A stretch of 63,595 nt of DNA, taken from a virus. Below the pieces are notes generated by a model. That model had not been told where the DNA came from, did no database searches, and saw only the letters and a list, made by a program, of their open reading frames with translations. Position numbers and translations under genes: made by a program. Below, piece by piece: positions 1-61,400 of this stretch (the stretch's first letter is position 1; each line of letters opens with the position of its first letter). The stretch lies in the IMG/VR virus record IMGVR_UViG_3300028549_001550, one strand, 5' to 3'.

Positions 1-255
1 CAGACAAGGCAAAGCCTGTTAAGGAAACCAAAGCCGCCAAAGCCGCCGAGACAAAACAGCACCTTTCAAATGCCATGGATAAGCTGAAACAAATCAATGC
101 TATATTTGGTGAACGTGGTAGTTTCTCTACTGAAAAGATGGATAAAAACATCTATGCACAAATAAAACCATTATTACAAGGCGCATTGGAAGATATTATT
201 GCAGCAGGTAAAACGGCAACAGAATTTGTGAAAATATCAATGGAAGCCTTGACTC
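1..255. repeat. Terminal overlap, copy A (identical to 63341-63595). The contig closes into a 63,340-bp circle.
   Basis: Read directly: bases 1-255 (cagacaaggcaaagcctgtt...tggaagccttgactc) recur base-for-base at 63341-63595. The repeat lies inside an open reading frame, so an assembly overlap of a circular or permuted genome is more likely than a physical non-coding DTR. Confidence 0.95.
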
Positions 256-3200
256 CAGACGCAAGACCGTATTTTGCTAAATTTGTCCAAGAGGATATGG
301 TAGTTCCAGAAACCCCAACAACAAAGGAGAAGGAAGATGGCAATACCGAAAGTAACGATAACGCCGGAGGACAGGACCAACAAGGATTGGGTACTGAAAA
401 AGGTGAAGAGGTTCCAGGAGGACGAGACGGGACTTTGGCCGAGCCTGGGGAAATCGGATCTACAGATAAGGATGATGGGAGTTTGGGAGTACAGCCGCCC
501 AAAGATGTATCGGAAACTACAGATAATGGGGATAGTAAAGGAGATGGCTTACGTCCTGGTCTGCTCAATGATGGAGACGGAGGACAAACTAATGGCGTCG
601 GGGATGCCGGAGACGGACGCACACCAACAGGCGGCGCAAACTTGGCTGATAATGGACCCGGAGGAGGAACCGGAACCGGAGGAAGAAGATTAGGGAATTA
701 TCATATTGATGACCCTAAAGCCCTGATAGGCGGCACCCCCAAAAAGAGATTTGCCAAAAACAAAGCCGCCATTGAAACGTTTAATACAGTTATGAATGAA
801 GGTCGAGAACCTACGGCAGAGGAGAGGGATATCCTTGCTGGCTACATTGGTTGGGGATCGTTCGGGCAGGATCTATTTCAAGGATCATGGGATAGGGCAA
901 AGTATAAGGATGGATGGGACAAGGAAAATGATTGGTTGCGTGAACACCTTGGGGAATCTGCTTGGAAATCTGCACAAACATCCATTCTTAACGCTCACTA
1001 CACCGACCCACCAACAGTAACCTCTATATGGAAGATAGCAAGGCAGTTAGGGTTTAAAGGTGGCAGGGTGCTCGAACCGTCCATGGGTATTGGTAACTTT
1101 TTCGGTCTGATGCCCAAAGACCTCAAGGCAAAGAGTGATTTAACCGGCATAGAGCTTGATGAAACAACGGCAGAAATGGCAAGGATGCTTTATCCTGATG
1201 CCAATGTTCAGCAGATGGGCTACGAAAAGAGCGCAACCGCCGATGGTTTTTACGATCTTGTTATCGGTAACTGGCCATTTGCCAAGGACGGGCCGGTTTC
1301 CAGGAGATACGATCAATACCGATTAAGCCTTCACGATTTCTTTTTTGTTAAAGCCTTAGATCAGGTTCGCCCCGGCGGGTTGGTTATCGGGATCACCAGT
1401 TCCGGGACCATGGACAAGAAGGGAACCGTAGCAAGAATGCAGATGGAGAAGCGTGGCAAGCTCATTGCCGCTTACCGAATGCCCATGGGTGCCTTTAAAG
1501 AGTATGCAGGGACATCTGTAGTTGCTGACCTTCTCGTTTTTCAGAAATATTCCGAATTGAACCCAGGTAAAAGTCTTACTCCTTGGGGGCTACAGGTGCC
1601 ACTGACAAACCAAGAAGGTGTTGCCCTTACTGCCGATGATGGTAGACCGATCATGGTTAATGAATATTGGGACCATAAACCAGATCATGTTTTAGGCCAT
1701 ATGACAGTTGGCCATGGAACCACGCAAGGCCGTATGGGTATGATTGTCGAAAGGCCAAACGGATATGAAGGGACATTGGCATTTTTAGCGGAAAACTTCC
1801 CTTCAGATATCATGCCAAAGCGTACAAACATGGAACACGTCAAGTATATCAGCAATCACACCAAGGAAAAACAGAACAGCATCACAATTACAAAAGAGGG
1901 AGAGCTTTATACTGTACGGGGCGAACGTCTTGCCAATCTGAATGATGAGATAAAATATTCTCTTAAAGACCCCAAAAAAACAAAAGCCCGTGAAAACGAG
2001 ATCAAAGCCATGGTGGAGATAAAAAACCTATATGGCAAACTTCTTGACACCGAGCGTGATGGAAAGCCAAATGTTGAAGAGATAAGAACATCTTTAAACA
2101 ACGCCTATAAAGCATTCACGAAGCAATGGGGGCCACTGAATAGTTCTTTTGCTTTAAGTATTTTCAAAAAGGCAAAGGACCCTTTATCAGCCGCAATAGT
2201 CGCCCTTGAAAATAACAAAGGGACAAAAAAGAAACCTGTTTATATACCATCCAAGATTTTAACAGAATCTACGCAACGAGCTAAAAAGAGGATGGAAAAC
2301 CCATCCATAACGGATGCCTTTGTTCTGGTAAGGAATGAAGAGGCAAGGACCGTTGACCTTGATGATATTGCAAAGAGAAGCGGGAAATCTGTTCAAGAGA
2401 TCAAAGAAGAGTTGTTTTCCAAGGATGCTATTTTTGAAACGCCAGCAGGTGTTTTTGAAGTCAAAGACATTTATCTGTCTGGAAATGTCCGGGAAAAACT
2501 ATTAGAGGCTCTTGACGCAAAAGAAAAGGGGCTTGATATGGAAAGGAATATCAAGGCTCTCAAAGAGGTAATGCCTAAAGACGTTCCATATTTCAGTATA
2601 GAGGTAAACCTTGGTGCGTCATGGATACCCTCGGATGTTTATATGCAGTTTTTTCAGGATGTGGCGAACCTGCCAGAACAAATAACAGACCAGATACATA
2701 TTACGCCGTCAGTCAATGGATGGGTTGTAAAGTTTGATGATGCCAGAAGATTAAACGATAGAGACGAAGTACGATCCCTTTGGAGCACCAAAGATGAACA
2801 CGGCAATATCGAATGTGCGTTTACAAAGATTGCCAAGTCTGCGTTTTCTGGACAAGCCATTACCATTAAATACAAAGACGAGGATGGCAACGAATTTACG
2901 GACACGGCGGCATCTTTAAGGGCAAACGAAAAGGTTGAATCTTTCCGGGAATCCCTGAAAGATTGGATTTGGAAAGATATGGACCGGAGAGTCATGCTTG
3001 AAGAACATTATAACCAAACCATGAATGCCTTTGCCACTCCAGAGTATGATGGTTCTTTCCTCTCTTTCGATGGAATGATGCTTAAAATGGGGTCGGAAGA
3101 GTTCAACCTTAGAAAGCACCAAGTTGATGCAATATGGAGAGGCGTTGCAAACGGGAGGGGATTGTACGCACATGAAGTAGGCACCGGAAAAACCTTCACC

Positions 3201-6200
3201 ATGGGGGGGATTGCCATTGAATCCAGGCGTTATGGATTGGCTAAGAAACCCTTAATCCTGGCGCACAATGCGAATAGCGCCTCTGTAGCATCCGACATTC
3301 AAAAAATGTATCCGGGTGCCAGTGTTCTCTATATAGATAATCTTGCACCAGAGAAAATACAATCATCATTGTATCAGATTGCCAATGACGATTGGGATGT
3401 TGTTGTTATGCCTCACTCCCTTATGGAACGTCTTACCTTATCAAGGGAAACATTAAACAAATTGGCCGCCGAGGATATAGCAAACCTTGAGAATGAAGCT
3501 ATTGAATCTGCGGAAGAAGAGGGTTTTGACATATCCGATATCCTTGATGATGCAGAGGCGTTAACAAAGATAAGGGGTGCCTCTACTGCGAAGGAAATTG
3601 TAAAACAACGAAACAAGATCATCGCAAACATTGAGAAACAAGTCTTAGCCGCCAGCAAGGAGGGTGCCGTTTCTTTTGAGGATCTTGGTATTGATATGAT
3701 GATTATTGATGAGGCTCACGAGTTTAAAAAGCCGCCCCTGGTGACCAAGATGAAGGTTAAGGGACTCAACACAGCCACCAGTAACAAAGGTATCGGGTTA
3801 AACCTTTTAACGGGTTATATTAAAGAGCTAAACCAGGGGAAAGGTGTTCATCTGTTTACCGGGACACCTATTACAAACACCCTGAACGAGATTTATAACC
3901 AGATGCGGTACACCATGTCAGACAAGATGGAGGATGCCGGGGTTCTTGGGTGGGATTCTTGGTTTAACACTTTTGCCTCGGTCAATAATGATGTGGAACG
4001 AACCTCAACAGGTGATTACGAGTCTGTTTCCAGGCTGTCAGGGTTTCATAACGTGTCTGAGTTGCGGCGGTTTGCAGGTCAGTATATGGATATTGTCTTT
4101 GCCGATGATATGCCGGAGTTTGTTCCCAGGGAAACAGCATCAGGTAAAACCCTGCTCGATGAAAGCCTTAGTGAGGCAGACCGTGCCGAGTTGATAGAGG
4201 GACGGGTCGAAGGTGGAGAAATAAAGGGTAGGCCCTACAAGAAAATTATCAATGAAGTTGCTGATATGTCCACTGAACAACGGGAAATCTTAGAAGGCTT
4301 AATCAGGAGAGCGAGGTCTTTTAAAGAGTCTGATGGAAAAACACGCTATGAGATTATGAAAACTGGAGATAACCGAAGCCCGGTTATCATAGAGACTGAT
4401 GCCGCCAAAGCAGGTTTTGACACAAGGCTTTTTGATAAAGATTTGTCAGAGCATCCAGATAATAAAATCAACCGATGTACTTCAAATGTTTTAGAGCATT
4501 ACAAAGCCCACAAAATGACGGCACAGGTCATCTTTATGGACAAGGGTTATAATGATACTGCTGATAGAGTCCGTAGAGTTGGAGGTCTAAAAGTTAAAGT
4601 AACCGTTGATACCTTTAACGCAGCTAAAGACATTGTGGCTAAACTTATAGCCGGTGGAATAAAGACAGAAGAAATCGCAATTGTTAAAGGTACAACTTCC
4701 AAAATAAAAAGATTAGAGATTGCCGAAGCTGTGAGTAGGGCCGAGATCAGGGTGGTCATAGGAGCAACCTCAACCCTTGGAACTGGCGTGAATATGCAGG
4801 AGAATCTAAAGGCCATGCACCATCTTGACGCTCCATGGATGCCCGGAGAACTGGAACAGCGGAACGGACGAGGCCATAGACAGGGCAATAGATGGAATAC
4901 TGTTCTTGAGTATAGATACATAACAGAGAGTATTGACGCAAGGAGATGGCAGGTTTTAGCCAAAAAGCAGAAGATCATTACAGATTTTCTGAAAGCTAAA
5001 GACGGTATGCGAACCATTGAAGGTGATGTCCTTGACATGGGAACCAGTGCTCTTGACGATATCACCGCCAGCTTTTCAGAAGCCGCCGGGGATGCTCGTA
5101 TCTTGACCATTGAGAAGTTGAAAAAGGATATTGAAAAACTCTCAAAGAAGCAACGTCTCCATGATACGGGGGTTGTCGAGGCAAAGCAGAAGGAGAAGAA
5201 AAACAGACAGGATATCCCAAATCTTCAAAGTGATGCTGATAAGGTAAATGCCGATTTGTCTCTTTACAATGCTGAAAAAGAGAAACCCTTCTCCATCACG
5301 ATCCAAGGGAAAGAGCATACTGACCGGAAGTCTGCCGACAAAGCCCTTGAAAAGATTTTTCTCAAGAACCATGAGACACGAAAGGATAAGACCGGGAGAC
5401 TTAAAGTTGCAGAAGAAGAAAAAATAGGGGAGTACAGGGGTTTTGAGCTTGTTAAGGTACTTAATTTTGTAACACAGCCTGAGTATTATTTACAAAAAGA
5501 CGGTGCTTATGACGTATCTCCATCTATGGGTAGTCTTGATTCTTTATCGAGAACCATGGGCAAACTGGCAGATGAAATAGCACGAGCCATAGGGGATAAA
5601 CAACGGGCCATTAAAAAGTATGAGCAGGTCCAGCAAGAGGTCTTTGGGCAAACAGGCGCCCTAAACAACAAGAAACATATGCTTGCATCAATCCAGGCAG
5701 ATATGGCGGCATTTCCAGATGCACCCCCAAGATGGCTTGCCCAGGGAGCACCCGTGGGAACCATGGTCTTTAATAAGGGTGTGGAATACGAGGTTGAAGG
5801 GCATAGGGCCGGGGACCATGATTTTTATGTCATGGCTTTTAAAGAGGAGGGAGGATCCACAGAGCATAAAATATTCTCATACAACGAGGTCAGGGATTTA
5901 AATAACCTGCCTCTCTATGAAGATTTGTCTCCCAAGGCAAAGGAGAAACGTCATTCGGATATAGGGGCCGCCGGATTCGGACAGCAAGGGCTTGATAATG
6001 CCAGATTGCAGGAACCTCTGTATTCCACTGAAAACACACCTTCCGGGGAGAACGTCACCTTACAGCAGATCCAGAAGATGTTCCCAGGGCAAAACGTAGG
6101 GCTCTCTCCTGATAACTCGGTTTGGGTACGCCTCAAGAACGGCGCAGGATTGAGAATCAAAGGCGTTCGGCAGGTATCGGAAGGTAAGTACCTATTTTCC

Positions 6201-9200
6201 ACAGAAACCGGGAAGATGGACCAGAACGGCCTCATTGCCGGGAAATATGCCAACAATGAGATTGAGCTTGTTGACGGCGTGGCCAATGGTGGAACGCTTG
6301 CCCATGAATCGGTACATTTTCTTGAAGATATAGGCGTTATCGACAAGGCTGATATCTTTGTCCTTGACCATAAGATTGCATCCCTGGCAAAGAACGGAGA
6401 CCTTGACTTTAATCTTGTCCAGGACCAGAGAGAGAACCGGGCCGTGTTCCTGGCGCAATACTTGGCAGATCGTGAAAAGTTCAGGGGAACGGTAGTAGGG
6501 AAGATCATTCAGAGAGTTGCAGATTTCCTTGATTCCATGGTTGCCCTGGGAAAAACATCGGTGCGTAAGATTGCCAAGGGGATTGAGAGCGGGAAGATAT
6601 TCGACAAACCAACAGACGGAGTTGAGCAACCGGGCTTTCAATTCGAGATAAGAACCAAACCGGCACCGAAAAAGACTATTCAGGCTTTCAAGTTGTTCAA
6701 AGTGAAGAAAGGTAGCCCTGGGAAACTGTTCCCCTTATATGTAGAAGCGAACAAACCAGTTGAGACAGAGGTTTGGCATGATGCAGAGATAGGGCCTATG
6801 ACAGACAAAGGGAAGGTCAAGTCAAAGTTAGGGCCCCTAGCATTTAGACCAGGATGGCACGGAGGGGACGCTCCTGTTGCAACACATATTGGTGAATCAG
6901 GAGATGAAACCCCAACGCCACGGTTTAGACCAGCAGATCAGGTATGGGCAGAGGTAGAGATGGCTGATGATGTTGATTGGCAAACCGAGGCAAACAAAAG
7001 GGCTACATTGACGAAGGCCGGGAAGCCCATTGCCAGGACAGCACATATAACAGACCAATTACCCATTGACGGGTCGTACCGGTACAAAACCAATTCAAAC
7101 ATGACTGGTAGCTGGATTATATCAGGAGCCATGAGGATTAAAAGGGTTCTCACGGACGAAGAGGTTTCCAAGATCAACCAGGAACTTGGGGTTTCAGACC
7201 TGCCCAGGGCGAACGGGGCAGTATTTGACTCCAAGAAATACGGGTTTGATGAGACTCAGTATTCTACAGTCTCCACCAAAAAAGACAAAGGTTATGCAGG
7301 GGAGCAGTTCAAAGGCATCCTCCCTGAAAGCGTAGCCAAGGGAATGGAGAAAAGCCGAGGGATAACCCCCACAGCATTGATTGACAAGCTGAAAAGTTTC
7401 CTGAGCGACATGAAAAAGGAGATGGATCATTTTCCTGAATTGACCAGGATGGAGCCGGGGGTTAAAGCCTCATCTGCAAGGGAGATCCTAAGACGGCATC
7501 AAGATATCCCGGACATGGTGCAGGACAAGACGGCAAGGGAGATGTCAGCCATTCTTGAGAACATGAATAAGACAGAATATGATGCTTTTGCAATGGAATT
7601 AATCCTTGGTGACGAGGTGCGGTCTATTAATGAAGGGATCCGGACTGATGACAATTTACCATGGGGTTTCACGAGTACGAAAGAGATGGTTGAATCTCAT
7701 AAAAGATTACAAGAGATGAACAAGAAAACCCCCAAGGTTGCCAAAGCCCTTGCAGACCGCCGAGCCTTTCAAAAAAGTGTAGCAAAAGACTTGGTTAAAT
7801 ATGGGATCATGAAAAAAGAGATCCTAAAAGATGGTGATTATTTCCATCACCAGATCCTTCTATATTGGAATAACAAAGCCGCAGAGCAAAAAGGTATGGG
7901 TACCTCTTCAAGCGAGGTTCGTTCCAAGTGGCGTCCCTGGATGGCTGCACGTAAAGGGTCACCCCTGGAATACAACACCGAGTACATGGAGGCTGAGTTC
8001 TTTGCCACGGCATCACAGTTGGCACAGGTGGAAACCGCCAAAAACCTGAAACAGATCAAAAAAGAAAACGATATCCTGAAGGATCTCAAGCAGGAAGCCA
8101 AGGCAAAGAATAATGCCCTTTATGCTGCATGGGTCGAAGCCGAAACAGCGCAAGACATGAACTTCAAGGATCCGGTAAAGCCCTTTTCTACTCGGATTGC
8201 CATTGGGTTTGCAGGTTTATCTAAGGCTGTTCAGGATGGGACTATCACCTATGACAGTGAGTTTCTGGACGTTGTGAACGCAATCCGAAAAGCCGGGGAG
8301 CTTCAAAAGGCAGACAAAGCCGCATGGAAAGATGCTGTAGACGATAACCCAAAGGTGAGCATGGCAATCAACCACCCCAGGTTGTTCCCCTTCCTCTCCC
8401 ACCTCCTGGAGAAACAGCACGAAGGAGCGATGTCGGCAGCCTTAATTTACAAAGGGATCAAGGGCCGTGACAGAGTTATGAAGGAATCCCTGGGTAAAGA
8501 CTTCAAGACCTGGAAACAGCTTATCCCTGAAGGTTACAAAGAATGGAAACCAGATCCCAAGGGTGGAGCATTCTTTGTTAACTCCATTACAGATCAGGTC
8601 CTTCAGGGGGTATTGACCGGGGAAAGGAGCCTGGAAGAGAAGGATGTCAGGAAGGTCTTGGCCAGGGGTAACCCACCGGTGTGGGTCCTGCCAGAAGGTT
8701 TGGCAGATACAATGGACAACTTCCGGTCCCATACCGCAGAGGGACGGCTGGCGCAAACATCGGAATGGGCCTTGTCAGCATGGAAACAGTATATCCTGTT
8801 AAACCCGTTCTCAGCCTTAAAATACAACATAAACAATATGTCAGGAGATTTAGATGTGGTGCTGGCATATCGCCCGGAGATTGCAAAGCCCGGGCCGGTC
8901 AAAAAAGCCATGCAAGACCTTATTAACTGGTCCAAGTACAAGACTCTCTCTCCAGCCTTGAAAGCGGAAATGGATGAAGCCATGAAGCATGGTGTTATCG
9001 GAAGTGGATTCGCTGTGCAGGAAGTCACGGACACGCTAAAGCTGATGTCCTCGGAAACCTTTGTCAAAAACATTTTGACTGAGGAAAAAATAGGCATGGC
9101 GGCGGCATACTGGAAAAAGGTCAAGAACGCCTCCCAGATTCGGGAGAACATTCTCCGCTTATCTGCTTTTAGATGGTTCAAAGGCCAGTTGGAGGCAGGG

Positions 9201-10358
9201 CAGAAAGTCTATGGTGCATCCAAGGTCGAAGATATCGACAACCTTGTTGTGGATGGGAAGCACGTTGAAGCCGCCGCAAAGATGGCCAGGGAACTCTTGG
9301 GGGATTATGGGAACATATCCAGGCACGGGGATTATATTCGGAGACGCTTGATCCCCTTTTATTCCTGGATCGAGATAAACGCTCCCAGATACGCCTATTT
9401 GATGCGTAACCTTAAACATGAGGGTGAGACTACCAAGAGACTGTCGTTTACCATGGCAAAGAAAGGTGCGGTTTTTCTTGCCAAGGCTTCAATGCTTGGT
9501 GGTGCTGTGATGCTGTTTAACTCTATTATGTTCCCTGATGAATTGGAAGAGCTCGGAACGGCACAGAGACGGCAGTTACATTTGATCCTGGGGCGCAGGG
9601 ATGACGGGTCAATAATGACGGTGCGATTCCAGGGAGCGTTATCAGATGCCCTGTCATGGTTTGCCAAGGAGGATCTACCGGAAGATATCAAGGATCTGGT
9701 AGCTGGCAAATCAACAATTCAGGAACAATTGCTCGATGTCCCCAAGTCAATATTGAACAAGGTGGTAGGCGGCATCCGTCCGGAAGCCAAGGTCTTATTT
9801 GAAACCCTTACCGGGCAGTCAACATACCCTGATGCTTTAAACTCTCGTCCTATCCGGGATAAACTTGAAAACGTACTGAAAACCTTCAAGCTGGATATCC
9901 CATACAGATACATAGCAGGGAGGCCGCAACGAGGTAACAGCACGGTAGAGCATTTTATAAGCGATGTCTTGAGCACTATCACTTACACAACGGAACCAGG
10001 GGTCCAGCCATACTACGACACCAGGAACACGGTTTTTGAATGGAAAGAGAAACAGGGCATTGAATCAGGGCAAGGGAAGCCGACCAAACGAGGCAACACC
10101 CTTTATTACTACAAACAGGCGTTGAAATATGGGGATTTAAAAGCCGCATGGAAATACAAACAGGCATATAAAGACTTGGGCGGGACCATGCAAGGGATGC
10201 AGCAATCAATCAAGATGGCTCACCCCCTGGCCGGAATCAATGTGGTACAGCGAAGGGCCTTTAGGCAGAGTTTAACCCCTGGCGAGGACAGGAAACTTGA
10301 ACAGGCATTGAAGTGGTACCATTCCACCTATGTCGAGAAGCGGAGAGAACTGCAATAG
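3..10358 (+). CDS. Giant polyvalent protein, C-terminal part (continuation of 58471-63594). Contains N6-adenine MTase, SNF2 helicase, an HExxH zincin motif and a long unassigned C-terminus.
   Basis: Codons 3-74 upstream of Met75 are open (DKAKPVKETKAAKAAETKQHLSNA) and duplicate 63343-63414. The ORF is 3,427+ aa long, has recognisable enzymatic motifs (see sub-features), and ends with a stop at 10356-10358 followed by a terminator. Confidence 0.9.
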   Translation, partial: DKAKPVKETKAAKAAETKQHLSNAMDKLKQINAIFGERGSFSTEKMDKNIYAQIKPLLQGALEDIIAAGKTATEFVKISMEALTPDARPYFAKFVQEDMVVPETPTTKEKEDGNTESNDNAGGQDQQGLGTEKGEEVPGGRDGTLAEPGEIGSTDKDDGSLGVQPPKDVSETTDNGDSKGDGLRPGLLNDGDGGQTNGVGDAGDGRTPTGGANLADNGPGGGTGTGGRRLGNYHIDDPKALIGGTPKKRFAKNKAAIETFNTVMNEGREPTAEERDILAGYIGWGSFGQDLFQGSWDRAKYKDGWDKENDWLREHLGESAWKSAQTSILNAHYTDPPTVTSIWKIARQLGFKGGRVLEPSMGIGNFFGLMPKDLKAKSDLTGIELDETTAEMARMLYPDANVQQMGYEKSATADGFYDLVIGNWPFAKDGPVSRRYDQYRLSLHDFFFVKALDQVRPGGLVIGITSSGTMDKKGTVARMQMEKRGKLIAAYRMPMGAFKEYAGTSVVADLLVFQKYSELNPGKSLTPWGLQVPLTNQEGVALTADDGRPIMVNEYWDHKPDHVLGHMTVGHGTTQGRMGMIVERPNGYEGTLAFLAENFPSDIMPKRTNMEHVKYISNHTKEKQNSITITKEGELYTVRGERLANLNDEIKYSLKDPKKTKARENEIKAMVEIKNLYGKLLDTERDGKPNVEEIRTSLNNAYKAFTKQWGPLNSSFALSIFKKAKDPLSAAIVALENNKGTKKKPVYIPSKILTESTQRAKKRMENPSITDAFVLVRNEEARTVDLDDIAKRSGKSVQEIKEELFSKDAIFETPAGVFEVKDIYLSGNVREKLLEALDAKEKGLDMERNIKALKEVMPKDVPYFSIEVNLGASWIPSDVYMQFFQDVANLPEQITDQIHITPSVNGWVVKFDDARRLNDRDEVRSLWSTKDEHGNIECAFTKIAKSAFSGQAITIKYKDEDGNEFTDTAASLRANEKVESFRESLKDWIWKDMDRRVMLEEHYNQTMNAFATPEYDGSFLSFDGMMLKMGSEEFNLRKHQVDAIWRGVANGRGLYAHEVGTGKTFTMGGIAIESRRYGLAKKPLILAHNANSASVASDIQKMYPGASVLYIDNLAPEKIQSSLYQIANDDWDVVVMPHSLMERLTLSRETLNKLAAEDIANLENEAIESAEEEGFDISDILDDAEALTKIRGASTAKEIVKQRNKIIANIEKQVLAASKEGAVSFEDLGIDMMIIDEAHEFKKPPLVTKMKVKGLNTATSNKGIGLNLLTGYIKELNQGKGVHLFTGTPITNTLNEIYNQMRYTMSDKMEDAGVLGWDSWFNTFASVNNDVERTSTGDYESVSRLSGFHNVSELRRFAGQYMDIVFADDMPEFVPRETASGKTLLDESLSEADRAELIEGRVEGGEIKGRPYKKIINEVADMSTEQREILEGLIRRARSFKESDGKTRYEIMKTGDNRSPVIIETDAAKAGFDTRLFDKDLSEHPDNKINRCTSNVLEHYKAHKMTAQVIFMDKGYNDTADRVRRVGGLKVKVTVDTFNAAKDIVAKLIAGGIKTEEIAIVKGTTSKIKRLEIAEAVSRAEIRVVIGATSTLGTGVNMQENLKAMHHLDAPWMPGELEQRNGRGHRQGNRWNTVLEYRYITESIDARRWQVLAKKQKIITDFLKAKDGMRTIEGDVLDMGTSALDDITASFSEAAGDARILTIEKLKKDIEKLSKKQRLHDTGVVEAKQKEKKNRQDIPNLQSDADKVNADLSLYNAEKEKPFSITIQGKEHTDRKSADKALEKIFLKNHETRKDKTGRLKVAEEEKIGEYRGFELVKVLNFVTQPEYYLQKDGAYDVSPSMGSLDSLSRTMGKLADEIARAIGDKQRAIKKYEQVQQEVFGQTGALNNKKHMLASIQADMAAFPDAPPRWLAQGAPVGTMVFNKGVEYEVEGHRAGDHDFYVMAFKEEGGSTEHKIFSYNEVRDLNNLPLYEDLSPKAKEKRHSDIGAAGFGQQGLDNARLQEPLYSTENTPSGENVTLQQIQKMFPGQNVGLSPDNSVWVRLKNGAGLRIKGVRQVSEGKYLFSTETGKMDQNGLIAGKYANNEIELVDGVANGGTLAHESVHFLEDIGVIDKADIFVLDHKIASLAKNGDLDFNLVQDQRENRAVFLAQYLADREKFRGTVVGKIIQRVADFLDSMVALGKTSVRKIAKGIESGKIFDKPTDGVEQPGFQFEIRTKPAPKKTIQAFKLFKVKKGSPGKLFPLYVEANKPVETEVWHDAEIGPMTDKGKVKSKLGPLAFRPGWHGGDAPVATHIGESGDETPTPRFRPADQVWAEVEMADDVDWQTEANKRATLTKAGKPIARTAHITDQLPIDGSYRYKTNSNMTGSWIISGAMRIKRVLTDEEVSKINQELGVSDLPRANGAVFDSKKYGFDETQYSTVSTKKDKGYAGEQFKGILPESVAKGMEKSRGITPTALIDKLKSFLSDMKKEMDHFPELTRMEPGVKASSAREILRRHQDIPDMVQDKTAREMSAILENMNKTEYDAFAMELILGDEVRSINEGIRTDDNLPWGFTSTKEMVESHKRLQEMNKKTPKVAKALADRRAFQKSVAKDLVKYGIMKKEILKDGDYFHHQILLYWNNKAAEQKGMGTSSSEVRSKWRPWMAARKGSPLEYNTEYMEAEFFATASQLAQVETAKNLKQIKKENDILKDLKQEAKAKNNALYAAWVEAETAQDMNFKDPVKPFSTRIAIGFAGLSKAVQDGTITYDSEFLDVVNAIRKAGELQKADKAAWKDAVDDNPKVSMAINHPRLFPFLSHLLEKQHEGAMSAALIYKGIKGRDRVMKESLGKDFKTWKQLIPEGYKEWKPDPKGGAFFVNSITDQVLQGVLTGERSLEEKDVRKVLARGNPPVWVLPEGLADTMDNFRSHTAEGRLAQTSEWALSAWKQYILLNPFSALKYNINNMSGDLDVVLAYRPEIAKPGPVKKAMQDLINWSKYKTLSPALKAEMDEAMKHGVIGSGFAVQEVTDTLKLMSSETFVKNILTEEKIGMAAAYWKKVKNASQIRENILRLSAFRWFKGQLEAGQKVYGASKVEDIDNLVVDGKHVEAAAKMARELLGDYGNISRHGDYIRRRLIPFYSWIEINAPRYAYLMRNLKHEGETTKRLSFTMAKKGAVFLAKASMLGGAVMLFNSIMFPDELEELGTAQRRQLHLILGRRDDGSIMTVRFQGALSDALSWFAKEDLPEDIKDLVAGKSTIQEQLLDVPKSILNKVVGGIRPEAKVLFETLTGQSTYPDALNSRPIRDKLENVLKTFKLDIPYRYIAGRPQRGNSTVEHFISDVLSTITYTTEPGVQPYYDTRNTVFEWKEKQGIESGQGKPTKRGNTLYYYKQALKYGDLKAAWKYKQAYKDLGGTMQGMQQSIKMAHPLAGINVVQRRAFRQSLTPGEDRKLEQALKWYHSTYVEKRRELQ
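309..690 (+). other. Gly/Asp/Thr-rich disordered linker of the giant protein
   Basis: Translation reads ...DGNTESNDNAGGQDQQGLG...NDGDGGQTNGVGDAGDGRTPTGGANLADNGPGGGTGTGGRR. It has no hydrophobic core. Confidence 0.75.
690..1546 (+). other. N6-adenine DNA methyltransferase domain (class I SAM-dependent) inside the giant protein
   Basis: The SAM-binding motif I VLEPSMGIGNFFG starts at 1068. The catalytic motif IV variant VIGNWPFAKD has its GNWPF at 1266-1280. The order motif I then motif IV is as in gamma-class amino-MTases. Confidence 0.8.
3100..5000 (+). other. SNF2/SF2 helicase domain inside the giant protein
   Basis: Four motifs are present: LRKHQVDAIW (3108), motif I HEVGTGKTF (about 3171-3197), motif II IIDEAHEF (DEAH at 3708-3719), and motif III FTGTPITN. 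Motifs V/VI read LGTGVNMQ...LDAPWMPGELEQRNGRGHRQGN, with the QRNGRGHRQGN portion at 4857-4889. Confidence 0.85.
6303..6317 (+). other. HExxH zincin-like metallopeptidase motif inside the giant protein
   Basis: Translation reads GGTLAHESVHFLEDIG, with H-E-S-V-H at 6303-6317. Only the short motif is visible; the fold is not verified. Confidence 0.45.
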
Positions 10359-10377: not shown

Positions 10378-10414
10378 CCCCCCTTCGGATTCAACCCCAA
10401 AGGGGGGTTTTTTA
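10378..10414 (+). terminator. Rho-independent terminator after the giant gene
   Basis: Stem CCCCCCTT (10378-10385) pairs with AAGGGGGG (10400-10407) and is followed by T7 (10408-14), 20 nt after the stop codon. Confidence 0.85.
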
Positions 10415-10430
10415 TTCTGTTTAAAAAGGT

Positions 10431-10777: not shown

Positions 10778-11344
10778 GTGGTGAACATTTTTGCTTATGC
10801 CAGGGTCAGCACCTTGGACCAGCAAACAGACAGCCAAATCAAGGGCCTGATGTCGGCATATCCCAATGCCATCCTCAGACAGGAAAAAAAGACAGGGACA
10901 ACAACAAGGGGTAGGGATGTCCTGAATTTAATCCTGGAGATGATCGGGCCGGGTGACAAGCTGGTTGTCTGGAAGCTGGACAGGCTGGCCAGGAATGTAA
11001 ACGACCTTTGCAAGATCATTGAAACCCTGAACGCCAAGGGATCTTTCCTTGAGATCATTGACCAGAAGATTGACACCGGGACGGCAACGGGCCGGGCCTT
11101 CCTCCAGATGTTGGGGGTGTTTGCAGAGTTTGAAACAAACCTGAGAAAAGAACGGCAGCTGGCAGGGATAGCAGCAGCCAAGGCCAAGGGTAAACACTTG
11201 GGGAGGCCCATACTCCTTACCAAGGACCAAAAATGGGAGATCCGTGGCAAGAAGGATGCCGGGGAAAAACTCTCCTCTTTATCAAAGGAGTATGCGGTAA
11301 GCCGGGGAACCATTTACAATGTCTTGAAAGAAACGGATATCTAA
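10778..11344 (+). CDS. Small serine recombinase (resolvase/invertase family, 188 aa)
   Basis: The N-terminal catalytic domain shows IFAYARVSTLDQ (the nucleophile Ser) and VWKLDRLARN. A C-terminal HTH reads EYAVSRGTIYNVLK. GAGGAG lies 6 nt upstream of the GTG start. Confidence 0.9.
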   Translation: MVNIFAYARVSTLDQQTDSQIKGLMSAYPNAILRQEKKTGTTTRGRDVLNLILEMIGPGDKLVVWKLDRLARNVNDLCKIIETLNAKGSFLEIIDQKIDTGTATGRAFLQMLGVFAEFETNLRKERQLAGIAAAKAKGKHLGRPILLTKDQKWEIRGKKDAGEKLSSLSKEYAVSRGTIYNVLKETDI

Positions 11345-31830: not shown

Positions 31831-32289
31831 ATGGCAAAGGTCGGACGAAAAGGGACATATCAGAGTGATTACCCGAGGCTTGCCTTGGTCGCTTGTGCCG
31901 AGGGTGGGTTTACGGATGTCAAGCTGGCAAAGCTGTTTGATGTCAGTAGGGCAACAATAAACTCCTGGAAACAGACACACCCTGAATTTTACTCCTCGAT
32001 CCTTGCCGGGAAAGATCAATACGACACCGAACACGTAGAAACCGCATTGCTAAAACGTGCCCTGGGCTATCAGTACAACGAGATCACCAAAGAACCACCT
32101 GATCCTGAGACAGGGGAAACGGGCCTGGTCATCACCAAAATCGTGCGGAAGAGCGTACCTGGTGACGTTAAGGCCCAAACGTTTTGGCTCAGGAACAGAA
32201 ACGGCGAACGGTGGCAGGATAAACAAAACATTGCTGGTTCCCTGTCCCTTACGCTATCTCACGAACAAATGCTGGACGAATTAGAATGA
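31831..32289 (+). CDS. terS: Terminase small subunit
   Basis: The N-terminal HTH reads FTDVKLAKLFDVSRATINSWKQTHPEF. The C-terminal stretch is WLRNRNGERWQDKQ. It has a 4-nt overlap with terL. Confidence 0.8.
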   Translation: MAKVGRKGTYQSDYPRLALVACAEGGFTDVKLAKLFDVSRATINSWKQTHPEFYSSILAGKDQYDTEHVETALLKRALGYQYNEITKEPPDPETGETGLVITKIVRKSVPGDVKAQTFWLRNRNGERWQDKQNIAGSLSLTLSHEQMLDELE

Positions 32290-33814: not shown

Positions 33815-34198
33815 ATGGCTGAGGTTATTAGAGAGATTATTTACAGGAAGGTCAATGGCGAGTATGAGCCGGTGCTGTCCATCAAACCAAAGGTTGAGCG
33901 CATGGGCCACATGGCAAACTTTGCTATTCGCCTGGATGACCTATGGATGTACACACCAGACAAAAACCCCAACTTTGACAAGTGGATGTACAAGGTTGTC
34001 ACGGAAATTTACAGAATGTTCAACCTTGGCGTTGTGATCTCAAGCCAAAAAATGGCCGAGGTTGCAAGTGTGATTGAGGATGGCATTGACGATCTGCTCA
34101 AGGCACCACCTGAGCCGCCCAGGGGCAGTATGTCAAAGGCCTTTGCTAAAGCCATGGGTGAAGCAACCATCAATGGAAAGACCGTGGAGTTTAGCTGA
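33815..34198 (+). CDS. Hypothetical protein (127 aa) between terL and portal
   Basis: The ORF is in the packed late operon and its stop overlaps the portal start. No family recognised. Confidence 0.6.
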   Translation: MAEVIREIIYRKVNGEYEPVLSIKPKVERMGHMANFAIRLDDLWMYTPDKNPNFDKWMYKVVTEIYRMFNLGVVISSQKMAEVASVIEDGIDDLLKAPPEPPRGSMSKAFAKAMGEATINGKTVEFS

Positions 34199-39184: not shown

Positions 39185-39828
39185 TCCTTAATCGGATACT
39201 GACATTGATTGAAACGGGTGTTGCAGATCCCTCGTTCACCAGGGAAGCAGACATCATGCCCTTGGTGAACGAGTTTGTGGAGGAAACCAGCAACCTCTTT
39301 AATCTTCCAGACCTGCAAGCGCAAGAAGGGATTACCGTATCATCAGGGGACATATCCATTGAAATGCCGGTAACTTTTTCTCGGGAGCTTTACAGGGTTT
39401 ACAACGATACCTTTATGAGGCTGGTAAGCATCCGCACAAACGTAGCTGTCCTGGAAGGGATGTACGATCCCTATGGTTCCCCTGGGGCTATAAAGGATGT
39501 GGCTCAAGACTCTGGAGTATTGTGGGTAAAGCCCAATCCCATTCAGGACCAAGAGTTAAGTTTGTTCTTTTACAGGAAACCGGTTCCCCTGGAGTTTGAT
39601 GACGATGACGGTAAACTTGACGGCATCCCTGATCACCTATCCCAGGTTGCCGTGGATTACGTCTTGATGAGGCTGTTCACGCTTATAGAGGATGGGATCG
39701 AGGGACGTAAGGTTAACACCGAGCATTACACGGGCCTGTATAGCGTGGGCCTTGCAAAGATAGAAATGTATTGCAAACAAGCTCCAAAGAAGAAACCCAA
39801 GATTAAGCGAAGTGCGAGGTTCATCTAA
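39181..39828 (+). CDS. Virion protein (215 aa; possible head-tail adaptor)
   Basis: The call rests on position only. No motif recognised. Confidence 0.45.
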   Translation: MILNRILTLIETGVADPSFTREADIMPLVNEFVEETSNLFNLPDLQAQEGITVSSGDISIEMPVTFSRELYRVYNDTFMRLVSIRTNVAVLEGMYDPYGSPGAIKDVAQDSGVLWVKPNPIQDQELSLFFYRKPVPLEFDDDDGKLDGIPDHLSQVAVDYVLMRLFTLIEDGIEGRKVNTEHYTGLYSVGLAKIEMYCKQAPKKKPKIKRSARFI

Positions 39829-57472: not shown

Positions 57473-58471
57473 ATGAATTTAGATTCGATACTTGATAAGG
57501 CGTGGAGCTTTTTAGATAAATCAATGCAGAGCAAACGGGAACAATCGTTAGCAGAAGGAGAACGCCTTAGTGCCGTTGAGTCTGAAAAAGAAAAAACAAA
57601 ACGGATGGAGTTATCTTCCCTGGAAAAAATACAAGCGCTTGTAAATCAGGGTGCAATAAACAAAGAGGAGCTTGTCAACCAGGGGTTACTATCCAAACAA
57701 CAGTTGGAAAACTCAGGGTTGATGGATAGGCAGGAGCTTGTCAACCAGGGTGAATATAAAAGACAGGAACTTGTCAACTCTGGATCTTTGGCTAAACAAA
57801 AGCAAAGTGACTCGGGGGCATTGGAGAGGTCTAAACTTGATTCAGAAACATCGCTTGGAGTGGAGAGGCTTAGGGGGAACACTACAAGAGATACCACAAC
57901 CGCAACCATGAAAATGTTTAACGATGACGGCACCCCTGCAAATGATAGGATTATTCGTCCAGCCAGAGACACAAACATTAGATCAGAAGTGATCACGCCA
58001 GAACAGAGCGCTATATTTAACCCTTCATCGGAACAGATAGATAATCCTACAAAGAAAGAACCATTATCATTGGTTCCAGAGGCAGGAGTGGCAAGACATC
58101 CAACGGCTCGATCTATGAATGCTCTTCCTGGTGGGCCTGGGAGTGGAATGACACCACAGGAAACTCTTTACCCGGTTCCACGGCAGGAGCCGGAGACATT
58201 ATACCCGGTTCCCCAGGAGCCGGAAACTCTTTATCCGGTCCCCCAGGAGGAAACTCTTTATCCGGTCCCACAGAACAGCAACCGTCAGATGATGCCGCTT
58301 CCTTCCAAGGAAACTCTTTATCCCGTTCCCCAGGAGGAAACCCTTTATCCGGTCCCACAGACAAAAAAGAAGAAACCACATACATCCAAGGAAACCCTTT
58401 ACCCTGTTCCACAGCAGGAAACCCTATACCCGGTTTACCCGACCAACAATAAAAGAAAGAGGATGTTTTAA
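57473..58471 (+). CDS. Repeat protein with (E/Q)LVNQG-type N-terminal repeats and eight ETLYPVP(Q) C-terminal repeats
   Basis: The N-terminal repeats read QALVNQGAINKEELVNQGLLSKQQLENSGLMDRQELVNQGEYKRQELVNSG. The C-terminal repeats begin QETLYPVPRQEPETLYPVPQEPETLYPVPQEETLYPVPQ... The stop overlaps the giant-gene ATG. Confidence 0.7.
   Translation: MNLDSILDKAWSFLDKSMQSKREQSLAEGERLSAVESEKEKTKRMELSSLEKIQALVNQGAINKEELVNQGLLSKQQLENSGLMDRQELVNQGEYKRQELVNSGSLAKQKQSDSGALERSKLDSETSLGVERLRGNTTRDTTTATMKMFNDDGTPANDRIIRPARDTNIRSEVITPEQSAIFNPSSEQIDNPTKKEPLSLVPEAGVARHPTARSMNALPGGPGSGMTPQETLYPVPRQEPETLYPVPQEPETLYPVPQEETLYPVPQNSNRQMMPLPSKETLYPVPQEETLYPVPQTKKKKPHTSKETLYPVPQQETLYPVYPTNNKRKRMF
58160..58441 (+). 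repeat. Eight irregularly spaced copies of the 21-nt unit GAAAC(T/C)CTTTA(C/T)CC(G/T)GT(T/C)CC(A/C) encoding ETLYPVP
   Basis: Read directly. The copies are synonymously diverged, and spacers are 3-9 nt for most copies, with two longer ones. Confidence 0.85.
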
Positions 58472-61400
58472 TGCCATTATCCGACCGTACCATGAAGTAT
58501 TATGATGATATCATAACCAAAAATCCAGACAGAGACAGGAAAGCGATAACAAAAGGGATTGAAGCCTTTCACGGGGAAGGGAATACCACGGAATGGTTGC
58601 CAACAGTTGATGAACTTGAGCGCTCTGGCCGAAAAGCTATGGCTACAGGGTTGGATATGTCCACAGGTCAGGGGCAGGGGCCACAGGCTGAACCTAAAGG
58701 CAATGTGTTAGGTGCCATTAAAGATATTGGGGTAGGGTTGATCCGAACACCTATAGATACAGCCACATCTATAGCAAGTATCATTGATGACCCTTACACC
58801 GAAGATGGTTTCTTTGATCCAATGATTGACAGCAGACGAAAGGATCAAGAAAAATATATTAATGCTCCTGGAGCAGAAGAGATAGCTGTACCTGGAACAA
58901 GCGTTTCGCGCCGTGAAATCAGAGCAGGAATGTCGAGCTTTGGTTATTCCATGGCGGCAATGGGTGCCTCCTTTATTCCAAAAGTGGCAGGGATGGCTGT
59001 CGGGGCTGTTAGCGGATCCACTATCCCTCTTGCAGGAACATTGACAGGGGCAGCTATTGGCTTTACCGCCGGTGCCGCCGCTTCTGGTAAAGCCGCCTAC
59101 GATATGGATAAGAACGCATTTGTCCGGGAATACAGGGCTTTCTTGGATAAAGACGCTGGACGGCACATAAACGATTCAGAATTTGCAGAAATGTTACCTG
59201 GAAAGGTTGCCGATGTTCTACATGAGCATGGCCTTCATGAGGCAGGGTGGGAAGGTCTTGCCACTATGGTTGAACGTGGAGCCATGGATAAGATATTTAA
59301 GGGCGGCGGGTTGACAGCTAAGGCCGCTAAGGGGTTGGTTGGCCTTATAGGGTTTGAATTAGGATCAGAATCAGCAACACAGATTGGTCAAACAAATGCA
59401 GAAGTAAACCTTGGCATGAAGCCAGAGGATGAACGAAGGTCTTTTGCGAGCCCACAAGATTGGGCCACATCTGCAAGAGAAGTAGCGCCAGCAATCGCTT
59501 TAATGAGTGGAGGGATGGCTACAGGATCATATCTTGCAGGAAAAGCGTTCAACAAAAAAGAAGGAGCGGAAGATCCTCCTCCTGTGTCTGATGCCGAAAA
59601 GATACTGCTAACTCCCAATGAATTGGGCAAGACTCCAGAACAGGTTTTACTTGATGGCGCTATTAATGATGAAGATGATGTAAAAGCGGCATCAGAATTT
59701 TCAGAGGAAGAATTAGACGGTGTACTTGGGGAACAGACCGGGGAACCTTCCGGAACACCAGCCGGGGAACCTACAAAGGCAAGCACACCAGAAGATGAAT
59801 ATGCCGCTTATGAAGCGGAACTTGCAAAGTATCGTCAGGGTAGGGAAACACCAGGGGAAACAGGGGAAGCCCCAGGGGAACCTGCACCAAAGGGGCAAGG
59901 CCAAGATGAAGCAGAGTGGGAAACAGAGTTTGCGAAGTACAGAGAGACAGCAGAACCTGTTAAAGACGAAGAGGTAGTACCTGAGCCGATCGTAACAGCA
60001 AAGGAGCCAGTGGTTGAGCCTGATGTTGAGCCAGTCATTGAGCCAGTGGTAGAACCTGTTAAGGATCCTGAGCCTGAGCCGGTAATCAAGCCTGATGTTG
60101 AGCCGGTTAAAGACGAAACCCCCATCGAAGCCCCTGCTATTGTTGCCGAGGAAGAAACCCCTGAGCCTGTAATCGAACCTGAACCAATCATTCCAGAAAA
60201 CGAGGAAGCCCAGGGAGTCACCTCGGGGCAAGCGGTCACCTTCACCAATAAGGGTGGGGAAGAGATATCTGGAACCGTTACCAAGGTTGAAGGTGACAAG
60301 GCGTGGATTGAAGATGGGGAAGGGAAAAAATTCAGGTTGCCACAGACGAAATTAACCCCCATCGAAGCCACAGCAGAAGAGGCAGAAGAGGTAAAAACAC
60401 TAGGGGCCCTAAATCCCCTTGATGTAAAAGTTGAGGAGTCTAAAGCAAAGGAAGCCTTTACCCTTACAGGCACTCAACAAACTTTTATTGATAAAAACAT
60501 TGAAAAACTTGGATCCATTGAATCTGTAAACAAGGAATACCCAGGCAAGGATAATGTTTCTCAGTATGCACGAGCCAGGGCCTTAGAATTTTTTCCTGCC
60601 GAGGATTCTACCGCTTTACCTGAACCCGGCATCGAACCATCCATAGAGACACAAGATAAAGAGGTTGCAAAACAGGCGTGGGAAATAACACCAGATGAGA
60701 TATCAAAACTTTCCCCTGAAGCCGCCCGGAAAACCCTTTCAGAACTGAACGATCAAACTTCTGTAGATTACGGAAAAACTACACCGTCCTTTTTAGAAAA
60801 AGACAAGCTCGAAAAAATCAACGCAACAAAGACCTTGCTTAGAGAACAAGCGGGGCAAGCTCCATGGCAACGCACACAGGCTCAAATGCAACGATTAGAA
60901 GGTATGCCAGCAAAGAGGCACCAGAAATTTGTTGAACAGGCCATATCAGAAGGAAAACCCGTTCCTAAAGAAGTTCTTGAAGCCTACCCTGATCTTACAA
61001 GCAACACCCCCAAGACTGATAACGTAATGGAGGATGAACCGCCAAAGGCTCCAGAAGTAAAAGCATCACAATATAAGGATTGGCCCGAGAGTTATACCGC
61101 CCCCACAGAAACAAGTGGAGAGGTAAAAAAGACCATGACGGGGAGAAACGCAACCCCCTTTCCTTCCTTGGACACAAAGAGCAAGGGAAGGGCAAGGGTT
61201 TCTGTTAAGCATCATCATAGGTGGTTGCTTGTCAACGCTCTTGCTGAAGCCACAGCACGAGAGGACGAAACAAACCTCCTCACATTCAACGGGCATAACA
61301 GCGAGAAACTTTCACCTTCTGATGTGGACGCCATGTATTCATACCTGTTTAAATGGGAACCGCAAAAAAAACAGCCTGGACCTATTGTGATGCCAGCCGT

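Follow-up and report, generated by a model that had tools for sequence, protein, structure and literature searches.

Profile matches, pairwise alignment, structural matches and comparison with relatives all support the assignment of nt 690-5000 to a DarB-type methylase-helicase dyad, a member of an already known family, and agree with the DarB-like fusion of an N6-adenine methyltransferase and an SNF2 helicase in a giant protein that had been proposed in a preliminary description. The module occupies approximately residues 1,850-3,530 of a phage protein of 5,075 aa, encoded in the stretch of 63,595 nucleotides analysed here (the window). Probably, the dyad sits as the central module within a late-made polyvalent protein, which would be packaged, ejected with the DNA and protect this DNA in cis.

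The contig is circular, since the window ends with the same 255 nt with which it begins (an exact repeat, 63341-63595 = nt 1-255). An open frame running from 58453 up to the window end continues in frame into nt 1 across the junction; the giant gene extends from the ATG at 58471 over the junction to the stop codon at 10358, as a single 15.2-kb reading frame accounting for 24% of the genome. The ORF 75..10358 (3,427 aa) is listed by the program from position 75 because this is the first ATG within the window; it was rejected as the whole gene, as it constitutes only the post-junction part of the continuous frame. Automatic annotation would truncate or split such a gene, since its frame spans the contig junction. 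The start ATG overlaps the stop of the preceding ORF (57473..58471), a putative ribosome-binding site (AAGAAAGAGGA) is located just upstream, and translational coupling to that ORF is predicted. Amino acid positions of the module motifs are numbered from nt 75 (ORF 75..10358) and not from the ATG at 58471.

Table 1. Coordinates of the giant gene, its modules and motifs in the window.
Feature	Position	Strand	Basis or remark
Giant gene, first part	58471..63340	+	residues 1 to ~1,623 of 5,075; open frame and terminal overlap
Giant gene, second part	1..10358	+	contig junction to stop codon
N-terminal domain with glycine-zipper-like hydrophobic stretch	58678..59580	+	residues ~70-370; phmmer
Gly/Asp/Thr-rich low-complexity linker preceding the DarB-like module	327..689	+	translation
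Helical domain with Y-I-G-W-G-S, corresponding to LPD36	738..986	+	model helices, residues 17-99
Gamma-class N6-adenine DNA methyltransferase core	996..1574	+	AlphaFold, Foldseek, BLASTP, column conservation
HYTDPP (motif X, TP)	996-1013	+	aa 308
Motif I, VLEPSMGIGNFFG	1068-1106	+	LEPSMGIG at aa 333
Motif II, GIELD	aa ~358	+	methylase core
Motif IV, GNWPF	1266-1280	+	NWPF at aa 399
Middle region, methylase to ATPase; beta-rich, then helical	1575..3071	+	covered by phrog_10089 and phrog_11801
SWI2/SNF2-type two-lobed ATPase	3072..5354	+	Pfam, PDB profile search, motifs
Helicase motif I, GTGKT	3180-3194	+	verified in frame
Helicase motif II, DEAH	3708-3719	+	verified in frame
Helicase motif III, TGTPITN	3858-3878	+	verified in frame
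Helicase motif VI, QRNGRGHRQGN	4857-4889	+	verified in frame
Single HExxH region	6021..6626	+	HESVH at nt 6303-6317, verified
phrog_30118 domain, ~195 aa, highly conserved	6663..7253	+	between HExxH region and C-terminal module
C-terminal module, 1,028 aa, one hydrophobic segment	7272..10355	+	70% identical to P0241
Terminator-like hairpin and T-run	10393..10419	+	35 nt past the stop codon

Over aa 102-1884, the protein matches the PHROG family phrog_10089 (‘DarB-like antirestriction’) with E = 0 and 1,466 bits. BLASTP aligned P1 DarB with both the methylase part (2e-20, 26% over 263 aa) and the helicase part (5e-18, 21% over 928 aa), and the two parts are colinear. Such similarity lies well outside what chance would produce. 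The order within the one polypeptide is LPD36, adenine methylase and SWI2/SNF2 ATPase (YIGWGS at aa 257-262, motif I at 332, motif IV at 399, Walker A at 1036 and motif VI at 1595). All six motifs listed in the preliminary description were found exactly where it had placed them, in frame of the long plus-strand ORF, and its spacing of ‘about 600 aa’ between methyltransferase and helicase corresponds to 637 aa from motif IV to Walker A. Matches to amino-methyltransferase or SNF2 families were significant with PHROGs, the PDB profile search and Foldseek, while those with Pfam were weak; the proposal therefore withstands the refutation named in the preliminary description, namely a lack of significant profile matches to these families. 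The catalytic motifs are conserved in nine relatives, 120 database clusters and 50 IMG/VR loci. The module shares at most 51% identity with any cultured phage and 70% with one IMG/VR contig.

The LPD36 signature has been described as GxG followed by G, A or S (Iyer et al. 2017, PMC5512222 section 14), and at least 118 of 122 aligned sequences retain G-W-G. The methylase motifs follow in the order X (TP), I, II and IV, as in gamma-class N6-adenine methyltransferases. The AlphaFold model of the methylase (pLDDT 90.2, pTM 0.86) matched HsdM, M.BseCI, M.TaqI, CamA, BsaXI and BpuSI in a Foldseek comparison with the PDB (entries 3ufb, 2okc, 7qw5, 2np6, 1g38 and 2ar0; E 1e-10 to 1e-8, probability 1.00); the predicted fold is Rossmann-type and closest to solved adenine DNA methylases. 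No Pfam methylase model passes its threshold (Eco57I, PF07669: E 0.02, 15.4 bits against a cut-off of 25.3), and many close homologs carry precomputed matches to PF02384 (N6_Mtase) or PF07669. An alignment of 121 sequences comprised the present protein, P1 DarB and the clusters nearest to it. Here the E, P and G of motif I (LEP..G.G) and the motif II D vary little or not at all, the upstream HYT-x-P motif is likewise conserved, and the motif IV residues N, P and F each occur in 120 of the sequences.

Compared with (N/D)-P-P-(Y/F/W), motif IV retains the N, the second P and the F, while the first P is replaced by Trp; this position is Val in P1 DarB (N-V-P-F) and Pro in cultured podophage homologs (NPPF). 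In the same alignment of 121 sequences it is V in 108, W in nine, I in four and Pro in none, and N-W-P-F is kept in all 31 IMG/VR relatives at 46-70% identity. The catalytic loop takes the form N-(V/W/I)-P-F in P1 DarB and the metagenomic clades, as against the NPP(Y/F) usually quoted, and the Trp form marks a coherent clade of ~60-kb uncultivated phages.

In M.TaqI, the second residue of NPPY contacts adenine through its main-chain carbonyl (PDB 1G38), and a change of side chain need not abolish catalysis. This bears on the reading that the methylase is dead, N-W-P-F serving to flip or bind a base and protection depending solely on binding and on the removal of restriction complexes driven by ATP. 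Such a reading draws on the replacement of the first motif IV proline (Trp here, Val in P1 DarB), on the Pfam methylase models under threshold and on the DarB literature (including PMC11109961), where no demonstration of DNA methylation by DarB was found. It is nevertheless unlikely, as motif I, the motif II acid and the N, P and F of motif IV are near-invariant down to ~30% identity, and cultured relatives at 30% identity combine the canonical NPPF with the same architecture. The earlier suggestion that N-W-P-F could signal an inactive module is accordingly disfavoured by the N-V-P-F of P1 DarB and by the conservation counts given above. It is similarly improbable that the N-(W/V)-P-F clade, including P1 DarB, represents, in place of a sequence-specific adenine methyltransferase of the usual kind, a motor-coupled processive modifier or scanner without a fixed site, or a flipped-base sensor. 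In such a non-conventional enzyme, the Trp that is invariant in the present sub-clade would mark a changed substrate or chemistry; if true, this defined sub-clade, with its unusual and unvarying catalytic loop, would provide a handle on the DarB mechanism.

The helicase motifs are conserved in the nine relatives, P1 DarB among them. In Pfam, Helicase_C (2e-9) and ResIII (1e-4) are both above the cut-off and SNF2-rel_dom is under threshold (E 0.002, 17.6 bits against 24.9). A family profile searched against PDB sequences retrieved INO80 (9e-12), ISWI (2e-11) and SsoRad54 (3e-9), with SMARCAD1, SNF2h, CHD1L, RAD5 and RapA as further top matches, and the top of this list for the helicase profile consists of SWI2/SNF2 ATPases only.

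Transcription pulls in the genome in T7 and N4. For the present phage, it may be asked whether the SNF2 translocase, once ejected, pulls the remaining genome from the capsid into the cytoplasm instead of countering restriction, with the methylase acting mainly as a DNA clamp. The genome position and the hydrophobic N- and C-terminal segments resemble those of podophage ejection proteins, SNF2 enzymes move on duplex DNA without unwinding it (summarised in PMC5512222), and both the size of the gene (24% of the genome) and its retention throughout the phage group point to a function that is more than accessory. Such a DNA-entry motor is nonetheless quite unlikely, considering that P1 darB mutants, according to papers citing Iida 1987, are viable and affected solely on restricting hosts, and that near-invariant S-adenosylmethionine-binding and catalytic residues are unexpected for a mere clamp.

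With respect to genome context, the phage is circularly assembled (63.3 kb) and, judging by its capsid genes, appears related to PEp14/Bcep22-like podophages; its major capsid protein is ~49% identical to those of Pavtok, PEp14, Itty13 and DC1, each of which has a giant DarB-like gene in its genome. The giant gene shares its strand with the terminase, portal, capsid and head-closure genes and lies downstream of them, and gene order indicates that the late (structural) operon ends with it. The hairpin past its stop codon probably marks the operon end; a single terminator-like site was found as compared to ~0.9 in shuffles, so that its position alone is suggestive. Mass spectrometry of purified virions has revealed the homologs JC1 gp69 and Bcep22 gp75 (PMC9144972). 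This presence in virions, together with the fusion to 3,400 aa of polyvalent-protein modules typical of delivered effectors (PMC5512222), argues against an ordinary, unpackaged late methyltransferase that marks progeny DNA in the producing cell before packaging. Although the gene is late and a second amino-methyltransferase motif was not found in the genome, both of which would suit that explanation, it is highly improbable.

In the preferred reading of a packaged and ejected protective protein, the product would be made late, packed into the capsid and ejected into the next host along with the DNA. Its ATPase would then load on the incoming phage DNA and travel along it, and ATPase and methylase together would shield this DNA in cis against type I-like restriction, through adenine methylation during travel or by occupying and clearing the DNA. 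Both delivery with the DNA and cis protection against type I restriction are carried over from P1 by analogy. According to PMC11109961 and PMC12707154, the mechanism of P1 DarB itself is still undefined. EcoKI restriction was alleviated even when darB on a plasmid carried mutations in its catalytic residues (reported as data not shown), and the effect of the plasmid darB was traced to the DNA itself and not to the protein (PMC11109961). The DarB mechanism is beyond the reach of sequence analysis alone.

P1 DarB (YP_006479, 2,255 aa) shares with the present module the order of helical domain, gamma-class adenine methyltransferase and SNF2-type ATPase, a non-proline second residue in motif IV (NVPF vs NWPF) and helicase motifs I, II, III and VI, although identity is just 21-26% and P1 is a myovirus with unrelated capsid genes. 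Furthermore, P1 DarB is free-standing, is targeted to the capsid by a signal at its N-terminus and depends on DarA, Hdf, DdrA, DdrB and Ulx, whereas the module described here is internal to 5,075 aa, and the N-terminal signal of P1 DarB (PMC9024508) therefore cannot apply. A tblastn search of the window with these five partners gave nothing better than E = 0.8; because they are absent from the window, the protein is regarded as a DarB homolog outside the P1-type Dar system. The missing partners and the internal position both count against the preferred reading, as do the Pfam methylase models under threshold and the replaced first proline of motif IV.

Closer in genome type are the giant ‘DarB-like antirestriction’ or ‘PLxRFG’ proteins of podophages of the PEp14-, Bcep22-, Lastavirus- and Gervaisevirus-type (Bcep22 gp75, JC1 gp69, PEp14_00027, SopranoGao gp06 and Parlo). 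These phages have ~60 kb genomes, major capsid proteins ~46-50% identical to the present one, a giant gene ending the late operon and a methylase-SNF2 module ~30% identical over 1,430 aa; however, their motif IV is the canonical NPPF instead of NWPF, and several of the giants have an N-terminal lytic transglycosylase or acetyltransferase domain, neither of which was detected here. Among cultured phages, the module is most similar (50.8% identity over 1,434 aa) to a 4,947-aa protein of Pseudomonas phages vB_PaeM_USP_18/USP_25, which also has GNWPF and the same place before lysis and recombinase genes, but is annotated merely as hypothetical and has flanking regions without detectable similarity. 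The architecture is identical to that of the dyad defined by Iyer, Burroughs, Anand, de Souza and Aravind in 2017 (LPD36 with GxG(G/A/S), methylase, ATPase), which is likewise one of several modules encoded by a late gene of a phage; its methylase is EcoKI/TaqI-like with an upstream TP motif, and DarB is the archetype (PMC5512222). The motif is given there as NPP(Y/F), in contrast to N-(W/V)-P-F in the present clade and P1 DarB.

As a DarB-like module is a routinely annotated feature of PEp14/Bcep22-like podophages, all of which have such giant proteins, the finding is a diverged addition to a widely annotated family and leaves the understanding of phage anti-restriction unchanged. Its value is modest and pertains to the form of the catalytic loop, the junction-spanning gene and the modular build of the giants.

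The remaining modules would probably serve virion incorporation and ejection, in addition to extra effector functions. Almost no match was found among cultured phages for the N-terminal 1,620 aa and the C-terminal 1,550 aa. In a phmmer search of 1.84 billion representatives, the N-terminal domain gave 358 matches; in the best of these, residues 70-370 align with the beginning of giant proteins. Many proteins of 2,000-5,500 aa start with this domain, and Pfam glycine-zipper matches to it are all under threshold. The domain may act in incorporation into the virion or in contact with the membrane. Between methylase and ATPase, the middle region is conserved within the family, and the AlphaFold model reaches residue 700 (numbered from nt 75). 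The HExxH region, without a match in Pfam or PHROG, is 39% identical to P0241 (where the motif is HETYH) and may, as a lead only, be a candidate zincin-like peptidase cutting the polyprotein. The phrog_30118 domain has 351 database matches (~55-64% identity), and its structure model (pLDDT 87.5) gave no significant fold match in the PDB. The C-terminal module has just three homologs among 5.8 billion proteins and is found elsewhere within a stand-alone 1,607-aa protein that does not contain the DarB-like module, the present protein thus illustrating that giants are built from modules that also exist separately.

The fusion of a DarB-like N6-adenine methyltransferase with an SNF2 helicase, which the preliminary description had placed within a giant phage protein, is real and was correctly interpreted, with matches to PHROGs, BLASTP against DarB of phage P1, the fold and a profile search of the PDB all in agreement. 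The six motif positions reported there are exact and fall in one reading frame of the + strand, and the distance between methylase motif IV and the Walker A motif, claimed to be about 600 aa, is 637 residues.

The ORF finder lists the giant frame as 75..10358 (3,427 aa). The window carries an exact direct repeat of 255 nt at its ends (1-255 and 63341-63595), and since these termini are identical, the contig closes into a circle of 63,340 bp of unique sequence. A true start at nt 75 is ruled out, as the giant-ORF frame is open from nt 1 and continuous with the frame from 58453 to the window end, which is open too and joins it in frame. The giant gene, cut in two by the arbitrary linearisation point, runs from 58471 through the junction to 10358 and encodes 5,075 aa; residue numbers based on nt 75 are converted to full-protein numbering by adding 1,648. 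In the corrected gene model, the DarB-like module lies mid-protein, away from the N-terminus. The end repeat fits circular permutation and headful packaging of the genome, both of which are reported for Bcep22-like phages.

Coordinates of the giant gene, its domains and motifs, and the annotated phage genes in the window
Feature	Position	Strand	Remark
First start codon (ATG) of the giant gene	58471	+	Overlaps the stop of ORF 57473..58471; preceded by AAGAAAGAGGA
N-terminal domain, residues ~70-370	58678-59580	+	Glycine-zipper-like hydrophobic stretch (GMSSFGYSMAAMGASFIPKVAGMAVGAVSG...)
Methylase motif I, VLEPSMGIGNFFG	1068-1106	+	Position check in giant-ORF frame
Methylase motif IV, GNWPF	1266-1280	+	Position check in giant-ORF frame
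Helicase motif GTGKT	3180-3194	+	Position check in giant-ORF frame
Helicase motif DEAH	3708-3719	+	Position check in giant-ORF frame
Helicase motif TGTPITN	3858-3878	+	Position check in giant-ORF frame
Helicase motif QRNGRGHRQGN	4857-4889	+	Position check in giant-ORF frame
HESVH	6303-6317	+	Downstream of the helicase
195-aa domain	6663-7253	+	phrog_30118
C-terminal module	7272-10355	+	1,028 aa
Terminator-like hairpin	10393-10409	+	3' of the giant-gene stop codon
Serine recombinase / DNA invertase	10778-11344	+	phrog_125, E 1e-56; ~420 nt downstream of the giant gene
Terminase large subunit	32286-33806		
Portal	34198-36366		
Major head protein	37328-38431		
Head-closure protein	39828-41024		

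For the module, homology, domain order, fold and motif conservation are established. The giant protein matches phrog_10089 ('DarB-like antirestriction'; E = 0, 1,466 bits), residues 102-1884 (nt-75 numbering) aligning with positions 1468-3215 of the 4647 in the profile, and further PHROG matches are to phrog_11801 and phrog_3820 (DNA methyltransferase) and phrog_62 (DNA helicase). In BLASTP, P1 DarB (reference sequence from NC_005856) aligns in two colinear segments, first the methylase part (26% identity over 263 aa, E = 2e-20) and then the helicase part (21% over 928 aa, E = 5e-18). In Pfam, Helicase_C (2e-9) and ResIII (1e-4) lie above cut-off, while SNF2-rel_dom (17.6 bits vs 24.9) and Eco57I (15.4 bits vs 25.3) lie below it, and no methylase match in the giant protein exceeds the Pfam cut-off; as Pfam alone is weak, the methylase and helicase halves were tested independently.

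For the methylase half, residues 206-700 (nt-75 numbering) were aligned with 65 database homologs. Its AlphaFold model (mean pLDDT 90.2, pTM 0.86) finds its best PDB matches in type I HsdM subunits (3ufb, 2okc, 7eew, 5ybb, 2ar0), M.BseCI, M.TaqI, CamA, BsaXI and BpuSI (E 1e-10 to 1e-8, probability 1.00), and the predicted fold is that of a gamma class N6-adenine DNA methyltransferase. For the helicase half, a profile built from the giant protein, eight phage homologs and P1 DarB was compared with all PDB sequences, the top matches being exclusively SWI2/SNF2 enzymes (INO80, E = 9e-12; ISWI, 2e-11; SsoRad54, 3e-9; also SMARCAD1, SNF2h, CHD1L, RAD5 and RapA). The family profile was required for this result, as the whole ORF used as a single-sequence query against PDB sequences gave no match at E <= 0.01. 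Significant profile matches to amino-methyltransferase or SNF2 families, one of the conditions on which the original proposal hinged, are provided by the PHROGs and the helicase profile search of the PDB, and the structural matches of the methylase are clearly significant as well. Furthermore, the methylase is preceded by a helical domain with Y-I-G-W-G-S, a signature that fits LPD36 (GxG then G, A or S), the domain described as invariably preceding the 'DNA methylase-helicase dyad', of which DarB is the archetype (Iyer et al., PMC5512222).

NCBIfam matches (DrmD, DpdE and PLD-helicase models) cover only the C-terminal helicase lobe and are far below cut-offs, and PADLOC gives the same picture; these matches are not taken to indicate membership in a defence system and reflect the common SNF2 lobe. 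A Megablast search of 50,697 phage records with nt 690-5000 as query returned no match; the nearest cultured relatives are related at the protein level only.

The catalytic loop of the methylase reads GNWPF, the canonical motif IV being (N/D)PP(Y/F) and the P1 DarB counterpart G-N-V-P-F. An alignment of the 120 nearest database clusters with P1 DarB and the giant protein has V at the second position of the motif in 108, W in nine, I in four and P in none of the 121 aligned sequences counted. Each of the other three residues (N, second P, F) is retained by 120 of the 121; H-Y-T-x-P, motif I (L-E-P-x-x-G-x-G) and the acidic motif II residue are conserved to the same degree. Among 50 IMG/VR loci (L012-L061), G-N-W-P-F occurs in all 31 that are 46-70% identical to the methylase and (G/S)-N-V-P-F in the 19 more distant ones, a split that exactly parallels sequence identity. 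The canonical G-N-P-P-F is found in cultured podophage homologs of ~30% identity (VvAW1, Itty13, Atu_ph08, PEp14, SopranoGao, Mwe-JY07 and AhaGv). On these comparisons, the tryptophan is a fixed, clade-defining character, retained through ~50% sequence divergence beside invariant catalytic neighbours. Such a pattern is the expected product of purifying selection on a working active site and argues against a decayed domain, while falling short of proof of catalysis and being silent on specificity. Decay of the loop is rejected on its conservation in the 121-sequence alignment and the 50 loci, and the inactive module considered in the preliminary description is disfavoured by the uniformity of the 31 closer loci and the NVPF of P1 DarB; that the methylase serves as a catalytically silent base-binding domain is unlikely.

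The window is a complete phage genome in which replication genes sit apart from the giant gene and + strand genes without annotation run from the head-closure gene up to it. In the ~16 kb at 42582-58471 (+), eight of the nine scanned proteins have no PHROG match or match unknown-function families only; presumably, these genes encode tail and virion proteins, in a lineage that has been poorly sampled. A search for tRNA genes in the window was negative. Between the giant gene and the serine recombinase, no holin or endolysin was recognised, whereas vB_PaeM_USP_18 carries its lysis genes there.

Major capsid proteins with ~46-50% identity to the one encoded here occur in Klebsiella phages LASTA and SJM3, Pseudomonas phage Itty13, Burkholderia phage DC1 and Erwinia phages Pavtok and PEp14. 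A giant gene is present in all of these phages, annotated as 'DarB-like antirestriction', 'PLxRFG domain-containing protein' or 'DNA methylase', with products of 3,640-4,985 aa in their records. Complete ORFs with the module reach ~5,700 aa in IMG/VR relatives, and the 50 uncultivated phage contigs (L012-L061; many of 55-66 kb) carry it within ORFs of 4,000-5,900 aa. Its closest cultured homolog, a hypothetical protein of 4,947 aa (50.8% identity), belongs to Pseudomonas phages vB_PaeM_USP_18 / USP_25 of the NWPF clade, and the closest overall is on one IMG/VR contig (70%). The NCBI 'PLxRFG' domain named in the relatives' annotations has no NCBIfam match in the giant protein, and the exact PLxRFG motif is absent from it, only 'PLAFRPG' occurring within the 195-aa domain. 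The DarB-like giant protein is a well-known, routinely annotated feature of this phage group, and the residual value of the present case lies in the corrected gene model, the modular anatomy and the unusual catalytic loop, which is conserved as a character of the lineage and is of a kind also seen in P1 DarB.

P1 DarB resides inside the phage head, with ~40 copies in each virion (PMC9024508). It protects only co-packaged DNA against EcoB- and EcoK-type restriction, and its mode of action is 'not defined' (PMC11109961). Among podophages, purified virions of JC1 and Bcep22 were found to contain the respective giant proteins, gp69 and gp75 (PMC9144972), and the 3,764-aa protein of Parlo is described in like terms (PMC6606913). 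Drawing on P1 and the podophage homologs, we propose that the 5,075-aa protein would be packaged and then ejected with the DNA, on which it would load; the SNF2 motor would carry the methylase along the duplex, and the incoming genome would be modified or shielded ahead of type I enzyme action. That the protein is instead a late-acting methylase left out of the virion is highly improbable, and that the module is a motor for genome entry is quite unlikely. The P1 system includes DarA, Hdf, DdrA, DdrB and Ulx, whereas none of the five is encoded in the window. P1 also has an N-terminal capsid-targeting signal, whereas the module here is internal, so a signal of the P1 type would be unusable; on this comparison, virion incorporation must be conferred by regions of the giant protein other than the module.

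Outside the DarB-like module, the giant protein is a mosaic. The domain at residues ~70-370 recurs N-terminally in many giant proteins of 2,000-5,500 aa and may serve in virion anchoring or membrane insertion. Sub-domains at ~720-850, 880-980 and 980-1190 recur in other giants at varying positions, and a single 83-aa stretch is all of the N-terminal part that is shared with cultured phages.

HESVH is the sole HExxH motif in the 5,075 aa, where the chance expectation of one is ~0.15 by a rough estimate, so that its occurrence is not far from chance. The region is 39% identical to part of P0241, a stand-alone metagenomic protein of 1,607 aa with HETYH at this motif, and may be a zincin-type peptidase processing the polyprotein, a reading for which no profile support was obtained. 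The domain of ~195 aa recurs with 55-64% identity in at least 351 metagenomic proteins, where it either occupies a protein terminus or is joined to ART-PolyVal, GNAT, ASCH or ParB domains. RPGWH, ATHIG, AHITDQ and YRYKT, with their immediate surroundings, contain the invariant residues. Its model, a confident one (pLDDT 87.5), has no significant PDB match (best E 0.63), the faint repeated matches to ADP-ribosyltransferases (cholix toxin, Arr, tankyrase) being not significant, and against BFVD it matches uncharacterised viral proteins only; probably, it is one of the effector domains of polyvalent proteins, so far uncharacterised. The C-terminal module has just three homologs in 5.8 billion proteins and shares 70% identity with the C-terminal part of P0241, whose gene lies on two metagenomic contigs (L003, 4930-9753; L004, 2328-7151) beside genes for an integrase, a protein kinase and collagen/Mtd-like fibres. 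Since P0241 has the HExxH region and neither the 195-aa domain nor the DarB-like module, the pieces of the giant protein have been combined independently.
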